Positions 43,128 to 49,567 of a stretch of DNA of 64,000 bases are shown in pieces. The translations under genes were made by a program, and so were the position numbers. Origin of the DNA: an uncultured SAR86 cluster bacterium (GTDB lineage Bacteria > Pseudomonadota > Gammaproteobacteria > Magnimaribacterales > D2472); assembly GCA_902628085.1 (NCBI GenBank), contig CACOLO010000005.1, positions 35,368 through 99,367 of the forward strand, in the 5' to 3' direction. The notes below the pieces were generated by a model that did not search any database, was not told the origin of the DNA, and saw nothing but the letters and a program-made list of their open reading frames with translations. Every line of letters starts with the position of its first letter. The first letter of the stretch is position 1.

Positions 43128-44591
43128 ATGGAAAAATTAAAACAAAAAGCGTTAACATTCGATGACGTATTACTTTTACCAAGTTATAGTGACTTTCTGC
43201 CCAGTGATGCAAATACTGAATCAAAACTTTCTAAAAACATCTCATTAAAAATACCTTTGATTTCAGCAGCCATGGATACTGTTACAGAATCAAGTATGGC
43301 TATTGCACTTGCAGAGGCAGGAGGTATTGGAATTATTCACAAAAATAATTCAATTAAAGAGCAGGCTAATCTTGTGAGGTCTGTAAAAAAATATGAAAGT
43401 GGTATTGTACGGGACCCAGTCACAATAAGTTCAAAGAAATCAATTGGAGAGTTAAAACAACTTACATCTGAATTAAGCATTTCAGGAATGCCGGTTGTTG
43501 ATGACGGTGAATTAAAGGGAATCGTTACAAGTAGAGATTTTCGTTATGCGGAAAATATGGAATCAGATGTTTCTACTATTATGACGCCGCTAGAAAAGCT
43601 GGTAACAGTAAAAGAGGGAGTTTCTCAAACAGAAGTAATGCAATTAATGTATAAAAATAGAATTGAAAAAGTTCTTGTTCTTGATGATGAGGATAAGTTA
43701 TCAGGCCTTGTAACAATGAGAGACATTGAAAATACTGCTAAAAATCCTGATGCCACCAAAGATGATTTTGGTAGATTAATAGTAGGAGCAGCTTTGGGAA
43801 CTGATAAAGATACTATTGATAGAGCCGGAGCGTTATTTAATGAAGGAGTAGATGTTTTAGTAATAGATAGCGCGCATGGGCACTCTAAAAATGTCATCGA
43901 AACCATTAAAACCATTAAACAAAAATTTCCAAGTGTTGATGTTGTCGGAGGTAACATTGCCACTGCAGAAGCAGCTATGGAGTTAGTCAAAGCAGGAGCT
44001 GATGCAGTAAAGGTTGGAATGGGCCCTGGCTCAATTTGTACTACAAGAATTATCGCAGGCATCGGTGTGCCACAAATTTCAGCAATATTTGATGTCAGTA
44101 CAGCACTAAAAAATACTGAGGTAGCTGTTATAGCAGACGGTGGAATTAGATTTTCGGGAGACATTGCTAAGGCAATTGCTGCAGGGGCTGACTCAGTAAT
44201 GTTAGGAAGTCTGTTTGCTGGAACTGAGGAGGCTCCAGGAAAAGTTGAGTTATTTCAAGGCAGAAGCTTTAAAACATATCGTGGTATGGGTTCAATTGGT
44301 GCAATGACAGAACGTGAGGATGCAAACAGATATATGCAGGAAGACGTCGCTGCAGATAAACTTGTACCTGAAGGAATCGAAGGTAGAGTTCCTTATAAAG
44401 GTCTAGTATTAAATGTTGTAAACCAACTTATTGGAGGTTTACGACAAAGCATGGGTTACATTGGATGTAAAAATATTTCTGAAATGCACAAAAAAAGTAA
44501 GTTCGTTGAAATTACAAATGCTGGCATGACAGAGAGTCATGTTCATGATGTTATGATTACTAAAGAGGCTCCTAACTATCAGAGAAGTTAG
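43128..44591 (+). CDS. guaB: IMP dehydrogenase
   Basis: 487 aa with [10 protein letters not shown], a CBS pair, the catalytic [11 protein letters not shown]-type loop ([11 protein letters not shown]) and GGIRFSGD. Confidence 0.95.
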
Positions 44592-44598
44592 TTAGCAA

Positions 44599-46164
44599 AT
44601 GAATAAACTATCAGTTAACAATAAAGCTATTGATACCATTTTAGTTCTTGATTTTGGATCACAATATACTCAATTAATTGCCAGAAGAGTAAGAGAAAGT
44701 AACGTTTATTCAGAAATTCTTCCATGGGACATTAATGAAGAAAAAATAAGGGAGCTTAATCCAAAAGGTGTTATTTTATCAGGAGGCCCAAACTCAGTTA
44801 CTGAAAGTTTTACACCAAGAGTTCCACAAGTTATTTTTGATCTAACAGTTCCATTACTAGGGATTTGCTATGGTATGCAAACTCTAGCTGAACAAATGGG
44901 AGGACACGTTGTGTCTGTTGATCAAAAGGAGTTTGGTCATTCATCTCTTGATGTTGTCTCAAATTCAAAAATATTTGAAGGCATTAATAAAAAATTAAAT
45001 GTTTGGATGAGTCATGGTGATCAAGTACAAGATTTACCTGATAATTTTAAGCTTATAGCATCAACCTCAACCGCTCCAATAGCTGTTATGGAACACGAAT
45101 CTTTGCCAATGTTTGGAATTCAATTTCATCCAGAGGTAACTCATACTGAGCAGGGTAAAAAAATATTGGATAATTTTATTTTGAATATATGTCATGCTAA
45201 AACTGAATGGAACATTGATGACGTAATTTCACAAAGAATTCACGATATAAAAGAAAAAGTCAAAAATGATAAGGTTCTTCTTGGTTTATCTGGTGGAGTT
45301 GATTCTTCTGTAACAGCAACATTACTTCATAAAGCAATAGGTAAGAATCTAACTTGTGTTTTTGTAGATAATGGACTATTAAGAAAAGGTGAAGCAGATG
45401 ACGTAATGCAAACCTTCAAAGAAAATATGAGTCTAAATGTTATTAAATCAGATAGTGAGGAGATTTTTCTCAGGCATCTAAAAAATATCGAAGATCCTGA
45501 ACAAAAAAGAAAAATTATTGGCAGAACTTTCGTAGATGTTTTTGACGCAGAAGCTATAAAATTGAAAGATATCAAATTTCTTGCTCAAGGAACAATTTAT
45601 CCAGATGTAATTGAATCATCTGGAAGCGAATCAAAAGAAGCGCGAACCATAAAATCACATCATAATGTTGGAGGCCTTCCAGATGAAATGAAGCTAGATT
45701 TAGTTGAGCCCTTAAGAGATCTCTTTAAAGACGAGGTAAGAAAAATGGGTAAAGAGCTTGGATTGCCTCAAGAAATGTTAGACAGACATCCGTTTCCTGG
45801 TCCTGGTCTGGGAGTAAGAATAATTGGTGAAATAACAAAAGAAAAAACAAAAATCCTAAAAGAGGCAGACCATATTTTCATACAAGAGCTTATTAAGGCT
45901 GATTTGTATGATCAAGTCTCTCAAGCTTTTGCAGTTCTTTTGCCAGTGAAATCTGTTGGAGTTGTTGGTGATGAGAGGCGATATGCAGAAGTAATTGGTT
46001 TAAGGGCCGTTGAAACTGTAGATTTCATGACTGCTAAGTGGGCGCATTTACCTTATGATTTTCTTGAACTTGTATCAAATAGAATAGTTAATGAGATAGA
46101 AGATGTCAGTAGAGTGGTTTATGACATATCAAGCAAACCTCCTGCTACCATAGAATGGGAATGA
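44599..46164 (+). CDS. guaA: GMP synthase (glutamine-hydrolysing)
   Basis: 521 aa with GICYGMQ, the PP-loop SGGVDSS and the C-terminus KPPATIEWE*. Confidence 0.95.
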
Positions 46165-46562
46165 AGAAAAGAAAAGTTTTTCAACATAACCAATTTAAAT
46201 GTGTTGTTGCATTTTGGAAAGGTAAATATCAGGGAGTAGCAAGACTCTCAAATGAAGTTGTTTTTAAACTTATAGGTATTGATCTTGAAGATGTGGAGAT
46301 TAAACTCAAAGACCAAATAGAAAAAAATGGACAAGAAATTGTTTATGATCACTTAAAAAAGGTTCATCAAGAACTTCTAAAATCAAACAATGTTAAGAAT
46401 TATCAAGATATTGAAATAACTTTATCTAAGAAAAATCACAGAACAGCACATTGTTTTAGATGCAGAGGCCAACTAGACAATCATTATAATCACGAATGTA
46501 ATGCATGTGGATGGATTCTTTGTGTTTGTGGTGCGTGTGGTTGTAGTTATATGAAATTTTAA
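46161..46562 (+). CDS. Hypothetical protein with a C-terminal Cys-rich zinc-ribbon-like module
   Basis: About 133 aa. The ATG at 46161 overlaps the guaA TGA (ATGA); the track start is 46155. The C-terminus is [32 protein letters not shown]. No family recognised. Confidence 0.5.
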
Positions 46563-47998
46563 TGAAAACTACTGATTGGATTTTAAAAAAATGTAAAGAA
46601 GAGTTCTTTGAAATTGAGAATAGAACTGACTTAACAGATGATCAAAAAATATCTCAATTAATAACAGTAACTTCTAGTATTTGTGCAGGAGTAGCAGTTC
46701 AACCTATCCCATTTGGTGATATATTTATTCTCACACCGATTCAGGCATATCTAGGAACTAGAATAGCAAATGTAAGAGGTATTCCAATTTCTCAGAATAC
46801 TGCTTTTCAAACTGTAAAAGAGATATCGGGGATGATAGGACTTGGACTATTAGCACAACAGTTAGTAATAGGTGCCTATAAATTCATTCCTTATTGGGGA
46901 AGTATCACCTCAATACCTGTAGTTTTTGGAATGTCACTGGCGATTGGAAAAGTCTTGGATATATATTTCACAAAAAAATCTCTTGGTCAGCATATCGATC
47001 CTGAATATCTTAAGAGTGTGTTCAACAAAGCAAAAGAAGAAGGTAAAAGAAGAGCAAAAGAAAGTGATGCTCAAGAAACTTTTAAAAAATATTCAGAAGA
47101 GTTTAGTAATAAAGATTTACCAAATAAAGGAATTGAATTTTTAAGAACAAATTTTGATGATCTTATTATTATTGCCTCCCTTCAAAATATACAGAAAGGT
47201 CTTAATCTCAATCAAAATGATGAAATAGTTCTCAGTGCATTCAGTAGGTATTCTGGAAGAACTTTTGATCTAGATAGCACAAGAGAATATTTAAATTCAA
47301 TGAGTGATGATCAAATAGTTGGTGTTGTATCGAATGTGAAGGGCATTCTGCATGAAATGGAATTTGTAAGAATTGAAAATTCAGATGGAGATCAAATATC
47401 AGCAGCACTTTTCCCCGAAACAAATCATAAAGGATTTGATGTATTGATGACAGATAAAGAACTTGGAACAAGTTGGGAGATACAACTAAAAACAACTGAA
47501 AATTCAGAATATGTTAGGGAATGGATTCAAAAATATCCTGACGGTGAAATTTTAGTATCAGAAGAAATTGCAAATGAAATGGGTCTTAATTCTTCTGGTT
47601 TAAGCAATGAAGATTTAACATTAAAGGTTGAGTCTTTTGTAGATAAGTTATTAAATGAGAAAAATAACACAGATTTTTTATATTTGATTCCAACACTGTC
47701 TTTATTATCAATATCTATCTGCATTATTGAATTATTCAAAAGATATAAGACTAATGAAATTAGTTATGAAGAATTTAAAGAACTATCAATGAGAGTCTCA
47801 GGAATAAAAGTAGGTAAATTTGCGATATTAATTACGGTACTAAGCATACCTGTGATAAATGTAGTTGTAGGTTCGGCGTTGGTTGCAAGAGTTATATATT
47901 CACTAATTACCATCTCTTCAGAAAGAAGTTTTAAAGATAGTGAAATGTCTGAAAATATATATTCAACTAGTTTAAGAATGATTAGAGATAAAAGATAA
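46562..47998 (+). CDS. Hypothetical membrane protein: DUF697-like N-terminal domain, Mrr-cat/PD-(D/E)xK-like central domain, two C-terminal TM helices
   Basis: 478 aa with a TAATG overlap onto the upstream gene. VQPIPFGDIFILTPIQAYLGTRIANVRG is DUF697-like. GILHEMEF...HKGFDVLMTD...WEIQLKT follows the E..D..QxK nuclease-fold pattern. The TM helices are FLYLIPTLSLLSISICIIELF and FAILITVLSIPVINVVVGSALV. Confidence 0.55.
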   Translation: MKTTDWILKKCKEEFFEIENRTDLTDDQKISQLITVTSSICAGVAVQPIPFGDIFILTPIQAYLGTRIANVRGIPISQNTAFQTVKEISGMIGLGLLAQQLVIGAYKFIPYWGSITSIPVVFGMSLAIGKVLDIYFTKKSLGQHIDPEYLKSVFNKAKEEGKRRAKESDAQETFKKYSEEFSNKDLPNKGIEFLRTNFDDLIIIASLQNIQKGLNLNQNDEIVLSAFSRYSGRTFDLDSTREYLNSMSDDQIVGVVSNVKGILHEMEFVRIENSDGDQISAALFPETNHKGFDVLMTDKELGTSWEIQLKTTENSEYVREWIQKYPDGEILVSEEIANEMGLNSSGLSNEDLTLKVESFVDKLLNEKNNTDFLYLIPTLSLLSISICIIELFKRYKTNEISYEEFKELSMRVSGIKVGKFAILITVLSIPVINVVVGSALVARVIYSLITISSERSFKDSEMSENIYSTSLRMIRDKR

Positions 47999-48003
47999 TT
48001 AGT

Positions 48004-48108
48004 ATGCAAAGTTTGACAAAGTGGCAAAACACAAAAAAGACACTCGGAAACACAGTCATAGCAGGGGTTTCAGAGGTGGTGTTTTGTGCAACTATTGAGT
48101 GGGAATAA
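48004..48108 (+). pseudogene. Degraded duplicate of the guaA 3' end (integration-scar-like remnant)
   Basis: The translation is MQSLTKWQNTKKTLGNTVIAGVSEVVFCATIEWE*. The genuine GuaA tail is ..[48 protein letters not shown] is locally higher than the surroundings. Confidence 0.55.
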
Positions 48109-48116
48109 ATATTAAA

Positions 48117-49373
48117 ATGAAGTTTATTGGTTGGAGAATGGTATTTACTGGTCTGACCCTTGAATTTACTGTAGTTGGTTTTCTTTTTTATAGCTTTCCT
48201 GTTATCTGGCCTTACCTAATATCAGAATTAGGCATGACCGAAAGTCAACTTGGAATGGTTTCTGCATTTTATTTTATTCCTGTGGCTGTTTTGGCAATTA
48301 TTGTAGGCCGTGCTCTTGATAAGTATTCTGTTAAAAACTTTATGATGATTGGAGCCGTAATTTATGCTGTTGGACTTTTCTCTCTAAGTTTCATAAATTC
48401 TTATTGGTCGCTCCTCACGATTTATCTTACTATTCTTGCCTTGGGATCAATTATGATGGGAAATTTAGCTGTATCTAAATTAATCGCAAATTGGTTTGAT
48501 AAAAATGCCGGCAAAGCACTTGGCATTGCTGCAATTGGTATTTCCTTTTCGGGAGTTATTCTTCCTTTAATTGTTGATCCTCTTCTTGAATTAGTTGGTT
48601 GGAGAAATGTTTATGTAATCTTTGCAAGTATAGTATTTTTCATTATTTTGCCTCTTGTTTTTTTTACTGTTATTGATGATCCAAAAACTATTAATCAAGT
48701 CAAAGATGGAGAAGAAAAAGATGATAAAGAAGAATCTGTACCTGAGGAAATGACTGCGAAGGATCTTTTATCTAAAAAAGTTTTTTGGATAATATCTTTA
48801 GCATTTGCCTTTCAATTTCTTTCCATGATGGGTGTACTCGCATTCTTACCAATTCATGCAAGCAAAATGGGATTAGATGAAACTTGGGATTTCTTGAGTT
48901 TACCTATCAAACAATACGTTTTTGCATATTCTTTAGCTGCATTTGGCGGGGTCCTAGGAAAAATAATATTTGGATATTTAATGGACATGATGAAAGTTGC
49001 ACATCCCCCAATGATTGCAATGTTGTTTCAAGCAATCGGAATTTTTGGAATTACATATTTCTATGAACCAAGTATATTTCTTTTAAGTACATTCATATTT
49101 GGTTTGGGTTTTGGTGCTGCAACGCCTCTTATGACTGCATGTTACTTAAGAATTTTTGGAGCACATAATCTTGGAAAAGCCAGAGGTATGTCATCTCCCA
49201 TCATTTCACCGCTTCAACCAATTGGCATTCTTATAACAAGCATCCTAATAGGTTTTCAAGATACCTACTTCGCAGCTTTTAATATTATGGGATGCTTTGC
49301 TTTACTTGCAGTAATTGTGGCAAGCCAAATTCAAGAACCTGAAAAATTTGATCTATCTACCTTGAAGCTATGA
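48117..49373 (+). CDS. MFS transporter
   Basis: About 418 aa with 12 predicted TM segments and a central charged loop (KDGEEKDDKEE). I prefer the ATG at 48117 to the track GTG at 48099, which lies inside the guaA remnant. Confidence 0.8.
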   Translation: MKFIGWRMVFTGLTLEFTVVGFLFYSFPVIWPYLISELGMTESQLGMVSAFYFIPVAVLAIIVGRALDKYSVKNFMMIGAVIYAVGLFSLSFINSYWSLLTIYLTILALGSIMMGNLAVSKLIANWFDKNAGKALGIAAIGISFSGVILPLIVDPLLELVGWRNVYVIFASIVFFIILPLVFFTVIDDPKTINQVKDGEEKDDKEESVPEEMTAKDLLSKKVFWIISLAFAFQFLSMMGVLAFLPIHASKMGLDETWDFLSLPIKQYVFAYSLAAFGGVLGKIIFGYLMDMMKVAHPPMIAMLFQAIGIFGITYFYEPSIFLLSTFIFGLGFGAATPLMTACYLRIFGAHNLGKARGMSSPIISPLQPIGILITSILIGFQDTYFAAFNIMGCFALLAVIVASQIQEPEKFDLSTLKL

Positions 49374-49567
49374 CATCCTATTAAGGTTAGTTTAAAAAAG
49401 AAACCAATTTTATATGTTTAAATGATATATTGAGAAAAATAAAATTTAATTGTTTTGATATATAAATTATATCTTGTGACATAAATTTGTCGCATCATTT
49501 TGAGAAGATCGTATCAAACGAATCTCAAAAATGTTCTATTATTGAATGGGAACAGTTTTAAAAAATC

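Follow-up and report, generated by a model that had tools for sequence, protein, structure and literature searches.

Behind the guaA gene of an uncultured SAR86 cluster bacterium lies a small island of two genes closed by a repeat of about 100 nt. The features are listed below with their positions in the window, which here means the whole 64,000-nt stretch of DNA that was analysed:

44599..46164, + strand: guaA (GMP synthase), a 521-aa open reading frame; the target gene, with its last codons as attachment site
46147..46164, + strand: left junction, the guaA end ACCATAGAATGGGAATGA (repeat family D5), read from the sequence; it holds the guaA stop and the ORF1 start (ATGA)
46153-46160, + strand: att-core-like GAATGGGA within the left junction, one mismatch from the GIsul2 att core GAGTGGGA
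46161..46562, + strand: ORF1, 133 aa, with a C-terminal eight-Cys module; elsewhere a stand-alone single-gene cassette
46562..47998, + strand: ORF2, a 478-aa putative membrane protein in which the two genes of a widespread module are fused
46562..47056, + strand: ORF2 aa 1-165, DUF697-like, probably membrane-associated domain; a separate gene of about 180 aa in most relatives
47267..47605, + strand: ORF2 aa 236-348, conserved, predicted cytoplasmic domain, recognized from a PADLOC PDC-M72B match, invariant residues and an AF2 model
47669..47920, + strand: ORF2 aa 370-453, a pair of strongly hydrophobic stretches near the C-terminus, interpreted as a transmembrane hairpin
48008..48107, + strand: right junction, a cassette-end repeat of about 100 nt, AAGTTTGACAAAGTG...GTGTTTTGTGCAACTATTGAGTGGGAATAA, identified from the sequence and from copies on related contigs
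48097-48104, + strand: exact GIsul2-type core GAGTGGGA within the right-junction repeat (core as published in PMC9376610)
48117..49373, + strand: MFS-type transporter gene, a label that is a reading of the translation alone
49539..49552, + strand: third, degenerate att-core-like site TTATTGAATGGGAA, intergenic, after the transporter gene

The genes upstream of the island are guaB and guaA. The guaA product has relatives named GMP synthase, with the Pfam domains GATase, NAD_synthase and GMP_synt_C, and the gene is 83-84% identical to guaA of MAGs labelled uncultured marine Gammaproteobacteria; a look-up for an identical guaA protein gave no match, and GC and gene content would suit SAR86. At 46161 the guaA TGA stop overlaps the ORF1 ATG (ATGA), and ORF1 and ORF2 overlap likewise at 46562, TAA with ATG (TAATG); the original prediction had described these overlaps, the coordinates and both protein lengths as they stand in the sequence. 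It had also recognized a guaA remnant downstream of ORF2, and the copy is real: TGCAACTATTGAGTGGGAATAA at 48087-48108 encodes ATIEWE*, resembling the guaA end, and a 26-nt probe of it found zero chance matches in the shuffled window. The prediction had missed, however, that this remnant is the 3' part of the conserved repeat at 48008-48107. ORF1 and ORF2, which together span 1.84 kb, are the sole genes between the guaA end and its copy.

Related marine genomes have arrays of cassettes that begin at guaA, and there every cassette, with one to three genes, ends in the same repeat. Its 14 distinct copies have a mean column identity of 91%, are all on the + strand and each sit at the 3' end of a cassette. 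The attachment core at the guaA end (...IEWE-stop) reads GA(A/G)TGGGA, and the 3' end of the repeat carries the same core. Every copy has the cassette boundary within the same few bases, ...GAGTGGGAAT(A/G)A, regardless of the next gene. That next gene differs among contigs: L077 has guaA, three restriction-modification/helicase-like genes, the repeat, ORF1, the repeat and a further gene, and L078 has ORF1, the repeat, a methyltransferase gene, the repeat and a gene for a DUF4116 protein. GIsul2 islands are known to integrate at the 3' end of guaA, with GAGTGGGA as their published att core, and an integrase-less unit at guaA, CR2-sul2, has been shown experimentally to move in trans (PMC9376610). 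The earlier idea of an integrated fragment was right, and the fragment can now be linked to att sites of the GIsul2 type. In length the repeat far exceeds the GIsul2 att site of 19 bp, a comparison that leaves some 80 nt without explanation. The third att-core-like site, likewise absent from the original prediction, differs by one mismatch from CTATTGARTGGGAA, with a chance expectation of 0.09 such matches per window. Since the gene after the repeat varies among contigs and an att-core-like site lies behind the transporter gene, this gene is possibly an older second cassette.

One may argue that homologous recombination or local duplication, acting in a hypervariable region, produced both the arrays and the copy of the guaA end, with no dedicated site-specific recombinase and with the repeat serving, for example, as a terminator or regulatory element. 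Flexible islands driven by recombination are known in streamlined marine genomes, and a crude motif scan found no tyrosine-recombinase box I/II in the island, the 64-kb window or loci L065-L097; moreover, the repeat contains an imperfect hairpin and a TTGACA-containing motif. However, the hairpin is of modest stability as DNA (z-score -2.75) and shows no covariation in any of its 17 predicted base pairs. In addition, the boundaries are fixed to the same few bases whichever gene comes next, the core is equal to the experimentally defined GIsul2 att core, and the ORF2-plus-repeat unit also sits behind guaA genes only 58-79% identical to that of the window, to which flanking homology would not readily bring it. 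We regard recombination or duplication as an unlikely origin. As for the repeat itself, the TTGACA motif was rejected by eye as a promoter -35 box for want of a convincing -10 box at the right spacing, and an integron attC site or structured RNA was rejected for the lack of core sites and of covariation. An Rfam search across the junction gave sub-threshold chance hits only, and viral contigs yielded no copy of the repeat. The cassettes, we infer, owe their movement to a guaA-targeting tyrosine integrase of the GIsul2 family that is encoded elsewhere and acts in trans, for which CR2-sul2 is the precedent.

ORF1 and ORF2 are unrelated cargo genes, apparently mobile independently of each other, and not one module. 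The original prediction had joined them into a candidate two-gene defence, abortive-infection or toxin-type module. In such a module the effector would be the membrane protein, and the zinc-ribbon protein might be its sensor or antidote. The overlap of the ORF1 stop with the ORF2 start, as well as an intact and nearly identical pair on seven marine contigs (L065-L069, L071 and the window), would agree with this view. Nevertheless, in sister lineages either gene stands at this guaA site without the other. On at least 10 marine contigs ORF1 (92-100% identity) is followed directly by the repeat, without ORF2 (L070, L076, L077, L078, L081, L083-L087), and on 10 others (L088-L097) a 92% identical ORF2 stands directly behind guaA, without ORF1, the guaA genes there being 58-79% identical to that of the window. 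The two do not co-occur outside this lineage: relatives of ORF1 were absent from all 64 loci that carry relatives of ORF2, and the conserved partner of the C-terminal half of ORF2 is a DUF697-like protein rather than the Cys-rich one. Overlapping stops and starts also join guaA to ORF1 and, in L073, connect an amine oxidase gene with the relative of ORF1 before it (66% identical), and thus reflect compaction and not partnership. Co-occurrence has already largely refuted the module, to which we assign very little probability, and a false lead is thereby removed, for the zinc-ribbon protein and the membrane protein are not to be studied as a pair. The cassette model does not account for one feature of the pair, namely that ORF2 begins right at the stop codon of ORF1 with no repeat in between.

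ORF1 ends in C-x2-C-x11-C-x2-C-x4-C-x-C-x2-C-x-C (C98-x2-C101, C113-x2-C116, then C121, C123, C126 and C128). This eight-Cys module, described correctly before, is conserved in 31 relatives, with seven invariant cysteines and C123 kept in at least 90%. ORF1 is a member of a large unannotated eight-Cys family, and with paired CxxC knuckles of zinc-binding potential the eight cysteines presumably bind zinc. No curated zinc-ribbon family was assigned: the best Pfam match was Cript (E 0.05), and NCBIfam, PADLOC and PHROGs gave no relevant match. In tblastn searches ORF1 had zero matches in phage records and matched one hypothetical gene on plasmids. Since its start codon lies within the ATGA at the att core, ORF1 would be translationally coupled to whichever gene precedes it.

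ORF2 is the fused version of a widespread gene pair. In the split form, a DUF697-like membrane protein of about 180 aa is encoded next to a protein of about 285 aa with two C-terminal hydrophobic segments, and aa 1-165 of ORF2 are 45-55% identical to the products of separate upstream genes in L007 and L005. The family, for which 328 homologues were scored, was followed at 53 genome loci and is spread patchily over many phyla (Proteobacteria, Cyanobacteria, Bacteroidota, Bacillota, Deinococcota and others), with cultured carriers including Halopseudomonas pachastrellae, Algibacter lectus and Planococcus salinus. When all ORFs within 5 kb were clustered at 58 family loci, no conserved neighbour emerged except the split partner. 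Neither ORF1 nor ORF2 has an above-threshold match in Pfam, NCBIfam or PHROGs. The resemblance to DUF697 noted before is weak for ORF2 itself, which matches Pfam DUF697 (PF05128) over aa 17-97 with E 0.001 and 19.3 bits against a gathering cut-off of 27.7 bits, but 30 of 80 relatives match the domain (E up to 0.1, best 5.2e-8) and several carry a precomputed PF05128 hit. Like DUF697/YcjF-type proteins (PF05128), the N-terminal 165 aa contain a QPIPF(A/G)D...TPIQ signature region with weak to moderate HMM matches, and moderately hydrophobic stretches lie at aa 33-58, 88-109 and 113-136. In contrast to YcjF, the DUF697-like domain of ORF2 scores under the Pfam cut-off and is fused to, or in the split form adjoins, a domain and membrane anchor that YcjF lacks. 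YcjF is paired with the GTPase YcjX, and nothing similar to a YcjX-like GTPase is present at the ORF2 locus. The two C-terminal transmembrane helices of the original prediction correspond to strongly hydrophobic segments at aa 370-393 and 411-453 (Kyte-Doolittle maxima 2.02 and 2.34), where the AF2 model has helices 372-396 and 402-455. The real conserved unit is thus a DUF697-like membrane protein plus a domain with twelve invariant residues and a two-helix anchor, in fused or adjacent genes, and across the phyla it carries no assigned function.

The central domain was predicted to have a nuclease fold on the strength of an HE...D...QxK pattern, which is indeed present and invariant. Twelve mostly charged residues (K260, G261, H264, E265, E272, N273, D275, D277, D293, Q308, K310 and E335) are invariant, and these columns persist in other architectures (30 sequences), which suggests enzymatic activity and not just a structural role in the membrane. 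E265, D293, Q308 and K310, unchanged in these 30 sequences from several architectures, fit the PD-(D/E)xK catalytic motif. As in PD-(D/E)xK nucleases of the Mrr/Hjc type, the predicted secondary structure is alpha-beta-beta-beta-alpha-beta, and the AF2 models place E265 in the first helix, D293, 28 residues on, at the start of strand 2 and Q308-x-K310, a further 15 residues on, in strand 3, all at the expected places. Unlike these nucleases, the domain is seemingly membrane-anchored, has the extra invariant residues K260, H264, E272, N273, D275, D277 and E335 outside the classical motif, and gave no significant profile or structural match. Pfam and NCBIfam contain no significant nuclease-family match for ORF2, Mrr_cat_2 was matched by one of 80 relatives (E 0.028), and a PDB sequence-profile search with full-length and domain-only alignments returned nothing relevant. 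Foldseek gave zero hits at E <= 0.001 for the full-length model against the PDB and for the central-domain model against the PDB and BFVD; its weak hits to HindIII (E 0.12, TM-score 0.23), YaeQ (probability 0.25) and 'PD-(D/E)XK endonuclease-like' entries, from models with pLDDT 71-75, were discounted as evidence. Thus, motif and modelled secondary structure agree and fit a nuclease fold, and the profile and fold searches, with HindIII as their best match, gave no confirmation.

ORF2 as a candidate conflict or defence gene, which the original prediction suggested for the pair, has partial support. The sole family match of the central domain is PADLOC PDC-M72B over aa 240-366 (PDLC04784, E 3.5e-19; PDLC04785, E 4.9e-17), a model which ORF2 covers only partly (positions 26-152 of 193). 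PDC-M72 is itself only a candidate defence system, on which no paper was found, and its other component, PDC-M72A, had no PADLOC match in ORF1, the ORF2 N-terminus or the split partners L005:5490-6035 and L007:169-696. BREX, CARF, restriction-modification or transposase genes adjoin some family loci, but most neighbours are ordinary and heterogeneous. The central domain also occurs in other architectures, including fusions to PDC-M09A-like candidate-defence segments, and on Roseobacter-group plasmids adjoining DUF262 and GIY-YIG genes. In tblastn searches ORF2 found nothing in phage records and matches to separate domains only on plasmids, and viral contigs hold just two loci of the family; this near-absence from viral and phage sequences fits a cellular gene and establishes no phage link. 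A literature search on DUF697 and phage found nothing relevant.

An alternative is that ORF2 is an accessory DUF697/YcjF-type protein of membrane homeostasis or stress, that is, ordinary niche-adaptive cargo and no conflict gene. Its DUF697-like N-terminus, which in tblastn finds DUF697-bearing GTPase genes, the mostly non-defence neighbours and the lack of any match to a validated defence family are all compatible with such a role, as are the many other guaA cassettes with metabolic cargo (amine oxidase, sulfatase-like proteins, methyltransferases). Against it, the lone family match of the central domain is a phage-defence candidate model, the domain recurs with PDC-M09A-like segments and near DUF262/GIY-YIG genes on plasmids, and the twelve invariant residues point to an enzyme. 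Moreover, the patchy phyletic spread, together with an ORF2 that is 92% identical between hosts whose guaA genes are 58-79% identical, indicates frequent horizontal transfer. An accessory role of this kind is possible, though we consider it the less likely reading. As a conflict or defence effector, which we infer ORF2 to be, it would hold a metal-dependent nuclease, possibly of the PD-(D/E)xK type, or a nucleic-acid sensor at the inner membrane, and might cut invading DNA there or trigger membrane damage via its membrane domains.

Taken together, the reading we consider probable is that site-specific recombination built a small island without an integrase at the last codons of guaA, in which two unrelated cargo genes are stacked, and that ORF2 is a putative conflict or defence effector. 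A bolder extension, which we offer as speculation and judge rather improbable as a whole, is that the guaA end is an integron-like gene-capture platform in streamlined marine Gammaproteobacteria, in which integrase-less cassettes of one to three genes, each with a recombination site of about 100 nt that ends in the GIsul2-type core, would be inserted at the guaA stop codon by a guaA-targeting integrase acting in trans, couple the translation of their first gene to guaA and shuttle between hosts whose guaA proteins differ by 20-40%; ORF2 would then be a new single-protein, membrane-anchored, nuclease-type anti-phage effector, with a two-gene version in most other phyla. The arrays themselves, of tiny integrase-less cassettes bounded by repeats with a GIsul2 core, lie behind guaA in abundant uncultured marine bacteria.

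Among known mobile systems, GIsul2 and CR2-sul2 (PMC9376610) resemble the island in their insertion at the last codons of guaA, in the core, which is exact at the right junction and has one mismatch at the guaA end, and in integrase-less units that are flanked by att cores and stand in tandem at one site. Unlike GIsul2, the island carries no integrase, conjugation or resistance genes, its cassettes go down to a single gene, its distal site is the repeat of about 100 nt and not a 19-bp site, and the hosts of its putatively mobile cassettes are uncultured low-GC marine Gammaproteobacteria. Integron arrays, including integrase-less attC clusters, also consist of co-oriented, often single-gene cassettes that each end in a recombination-site-like repeat, stack from one fixed entry point and have their first gene expressed from upstream signals. 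In contrast to integrons, the guaA array has no adjacent intI/attI, with no recombinase motifs found and guaB and guaA upstream, its cassettes stack from the end of a housekeeping gene, and its repeat consensus shows by inspection no RYYYAAC or GTTRRRY cores, in addition to the lack of covarying pairs. Tycheposons and the flexible islands of Prochlorococcus that are linked to tRNA genes have been described (bioRxiv 10.1101/2020.12.28.424599); tycheposons insert at seven tRNA genes and bring a tyrosine recombinase of their own, often together with genes for replication, whereas the target here is guaA and the units have neither hallmark genes nor a recombinase. Nevertheless, both belong to streamlined marine genomes, both carry a mix of defence and niche genes, and in both repeated integration at one site would displace older cargo inward, with pieces of the target gene's end remaining between the blocks. 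If the cassettes are mobile in trans, they would give streamlined ocean genomes a means of gene exchange similar to that provided by tycheposons and integrons.

The segment between the guaA stop codon and a downstream copy of the guaA end is very probably an integrase-less island that carries two independent cargo genes and is bounded by att cores of the GIsul2 type. GIsul2 integrates at the guaA 3' end through 19-bp att sites with the common core GAGTGGGA (PMC9376610). This core is found exactly at 48097-48104 in the window, and the guaA stop carries GAATGGGA. In the window sequence, guaB, guaA and the two cargo genes, ORF1 and ORF2, all lie on one strand, as follows.

Features of the guaA locus (window coordinates)
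43128-44591, + strand: guaB, from ORF reading of the window
44599-46164, + strand: guaA, from ORF reading of the window
46161-46562, + strand: ORF1, 133 aa; its ATG overlaps the guaA stop (ATGA)
46562-47998, + strand: ORF2, 478 aa; its ATG overlaps the ORF1 stop (TAATG)
48008-48107, + strand: repeat, conserved among 14 distinct copies
48087-48108, + strand: guaA-end copy TGCAACTATTGAGTGGGAATAA, encoding ATIEWE-stop as the true guaA end does
48117-49373, + strand: MFS-type transporter gene, the next gene after the repeat
49539-49552, + strand: degenerate third att-core-like site TTATTGAATGGGAA, intergenic, 3' of the transporter gene

Both start-stop overlaps and the eight-Cys ending of ORF1, as originally described, are confirmed in the sequence. 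The proposed guaA remnant is likewise real, since a 26-nt probe of it found zero chance matches in shuffled sequence. With a GC content of about 0.27-0.34, the insert lies slightly under its flanks. The host is an uncultured marine gammaproteobacterium, as the window guaA is 83-84% identical to guaA of MAGs so named. An upstream in-frame ATG lies within guaA at 46155-46160, two codons before the ORF1 start (MGMKKRK…); gene calls on most contigs start ORF1 at 46161, and a 135-aa form appears in a few Tara gene calls.

The conserved repeat, which reads AAGTTTGACAAAGTGGCAAAACACAAAAAAGACACTCGGAAACACAGTCATAGCAGGGGTTTCAGAGGTGGTGTTTTGTGCAACTATTGAGTGGGAATAA in the window, has the guaA-end copy as its final fifth. 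The 14 distinct copies recovered have a mean column identity of 91% and share one orientation, each following directly on the 3' side of a gene or block of genes, and sequences diverge completely straight after ...GAGTGGGAAT(A/G)A at the repeat end. These repeats delimit arrays of cassettes on related contigs: guaA end, leader, three genes (MmeI-type methylase-like, Eco57I-type methylase and T5orf172-ResIII helicase), repeat, ORF1, repeat and next gene on contig L077; ORF1, repeat, 221-aa methyltransferase, repeat and DUF4116 protein on L078; and a 195-aa gene, repeat, ORF1 and repeat on L083. In arrays where ORF1 comes later, the repeat before it provides the ORF1 ATG with its terminal bases (GGGAATGA), as the guaA end does in the window. 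The transporter gene may itself be a cassette that joined the same array earlier, because the core-like site TTATTGAATGGGAA, with a chance expectation of 0.09 matches per window, lies behind it and because the gene 3' of the repeat varies among otherwise near-identical contigs. The repeat contains an imperfect hairpin, for which 0 of 17 predicted pairs covary; an Rfam search of the repeat returned nothing, and integron attC core sites were not seen in it by inspection. In lineages whose first cassette is set back from the guaA stop, a leader of about 120 nt follows guaA (L077:239-340, L088:5860-6000, L089:455-595). It contains a terminator-like hairpin (CCCTGAAACCC...GGGTTTT), a perfect palindrome, TTTGACAAAGTTTGTCAAA, and also AAAACTTTGACAAATTTGTGCGACTATTGAA. 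Because the last resembles both repeat ends fused without the middle, it may be a primary attachment site.

The original prediction treated ORF1 and ORF2 as a two-gene module, and the co-occurrence check that it proposed goes against it: each gene occurs alone on related contigs, and tblastn found ORF1 relatives at none of the 64 loci bearing ORF2 relatives. Among contigs with an exact ORF1 or one that is 92-98% identical, together with one 66%-identical relative, three arrangements are seen. The order guaA-ORF1-ORF2 of the window recurs on L065-L069 and L071; ORF1 is followed directly by the repeat of about 100 nt and then by unrelated genes on L070, L076, L077, L078, L081 and L083-L087; and L073, with the 66%-identical relative, has guaA-ORF1-amine oxidase. 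Ten contigs (L088-L097) show the converse: a gene for a 477-aa protein with 92% identity to ORF2 comes immediately after guaA, ORF1 is missing, and the guaA protein is only 58-79% identical to that of the window. The ORF2-plus-repeat unit is common to hosts with diverged guaA, and the two-gene claim is refuted because ORF2 is found there without ORF1, and ORF1 elsewhere without ORF2.

ORF1 has only five close relatives in a word-indexed search; when 1.84 billion cluster representatives were scanned in full with HMMER, 682 relatives were found at E 0.001 or better, 81 of them at 1e-10 or better. Variable N-termini precede a common C-terminal module with the consensus HR-x-THCY-x-CK-x2-LDN-x2-D-x-EC-x2-CGWIIC-x-CGACGCGY, which none of Pfam, NCBIfam, PADLOC and PHROG covers. 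From its C-terminal pattern, C-x2-C-x11-C-x2-C-x4-C-x-C-x2-C-x-C, ORF1 is read as a small protein with two putative Cys4 zinc sites.

The ORF2 family is broader, with 328 homologues scored in a word-indexed search and 53 loci in a genome scan, in hosts including SAR116, Pelagibacteraceae, Thermodesulfobacteriota, Paracoccaceae, Cyanobacteria, Bacteroidota, Bacillota and Meiothermus. Most relatives are encoded by two adjacent genes instead of one, the first for a protein of about 180 aa (45-55% identical to ORF2 aa 1-165) and the second for one of about 285 aa equivalent to aa ~190-450, and fused forms (~465-478 aa) are found chiefly in marine lineages. Cultured bacteria with split pairs include Halopseudomonas pachastrellae JCM 12285, Algibacter lectus DSM 15365 and Planococcus salinus LCB217. 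Clustering of all ORFs within 5 kb revealed no other conserved neighbour beyond the split partner. The suggested DUF697 resemblance of the N-terminal part holds for the family, with matches in 30 of 80 relatives, but is sub-threshold in ORF2 itself; the C-terminus has two strongly hydrophobic segments. A 474-aa homologue, P0099, keeps the DUF697-like N-terminus and helical linker, and its conserved domain and membrane anchor are replaced by a region with a precomputed match to PF16565, which we take to be MIT_C, a phospholipase-D-like domain; an exchange of effectors of this kind would be in keeping with a conflict system. The closest homologue outside the lineage (61% identical, L072) has upstream of it a 69-aa fragment (L072:210-419) that by eye resembles the 'recombinase' domain of large serine recombinases (…GYRRIATKLNAFGIKTTRDTSWNNAKVYSVLKRN…), which suggests another mobile context.

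The sole family match of the central part of ORF2 (aa 240-366) is to PADLOC's phage-defence-candidate model PDC-M72B (E 3.5e-19). PADLOC did not find the A component of PDC-M72, and ORF2 falls outside the two-component definition of that system. This central domain recurs in other architectures, some fused to a PDC-M09A-like segment, and on Roseobacter-group plasmids adjoining DUF262, GIY-YIG and ArdC-like genes, with 12 invariant positions across all forms (K260, G261, H264, E265, E272, N273, D275, D277, D293, Q308, K310, E335). In AlphaFold2 models (pLDDT 74.9 full length, 71.2 domain), the N-terminal half is helical, and the central domain has the alpha-beta-beta-beta-alpha-beta order and residue layout of PD-(D/E)xK nucleases: the helix bears E265, D293 falls at strand 2, and strand 3 bears Q308-x-K310. 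From these models we infer a nuclease fold, although no significant match came from Foldseek (PDB, BFVD) or from two profile searches of PDB; ORF2 was not confirmed as a member of any nuclease family.

The genomic context of the family is mixed. Two loci adjoin BREX genes, and others have CARF-2OG, mad2 or type IIG restriction-modification genes, or transposases, close by; the genes around many loci are ordinary, and the family is nearly absent from viral contigs and phage records. At the loci of homologue P0054 (37-38% identical; L008:7454-8461, L010:4977-5984), the next gene encodes a DUF3427/NOV_C protein matching PADLOC PDC-S36 (E 1.5e-38) and PD-T4-1, and L008 has SAD_SRA and N6_N4 methylase genes upstream, a defence-island-like context. 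Elsewhere, two homologues 56-59% identical (L003:2926-7886, L074:244-5066) lie divergently beside the same four-gene block, encoding an uncharacterised protein of ~335 aa, an HSP70-like ATPase, a TerB-like protein and an M48 peptidase; the block could be a conflict system of its own or a neighbour specific to the lineage. In a Paracoccaceae MAG (L001:7517-7849, L002:145-507), a homologue follows a small 8xMP (octameric membrane protein) gene (Pfam E 1.2e-17) amid several DDE transposase genes. A defence role for ORF2 is possible, and we propose it tentatively. ORF2 would be a membrane-anchored effector directed against phages or other mobile DNA; its cytoplasmic domain would be a metal-dependent enzyme, possibly a nuclease, which might cut DNA at the membrane or signal to the membrane domains of the protein.

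The compact cassette array behind guaA and the two uncharacterised protein families are all worthwhile leads. No integrase was found in the island, which consists of the two ORFs only, and a motif scan detected no tyrosine-recombinase boxes in the window or related contigs. The GIsul2 integrase acts on an integrase-less unit with such cores at its ends, both excising and integrating it, and units in tandem at guaA are reported (PMC9376610). A tyrosine integrase that targets guaA and is encoded elsewhere could likewise move the cassettes in trans, with successive insertions stacking them and ORF1 presumably expressed via its coupling to guaA. The island has the same cassette logic as integrons and builds up much as tycheposons do, yet falls outside the definitions of both; it is instead a variant of the GIsul2-type guaA-integrating islands and mobilisable units.
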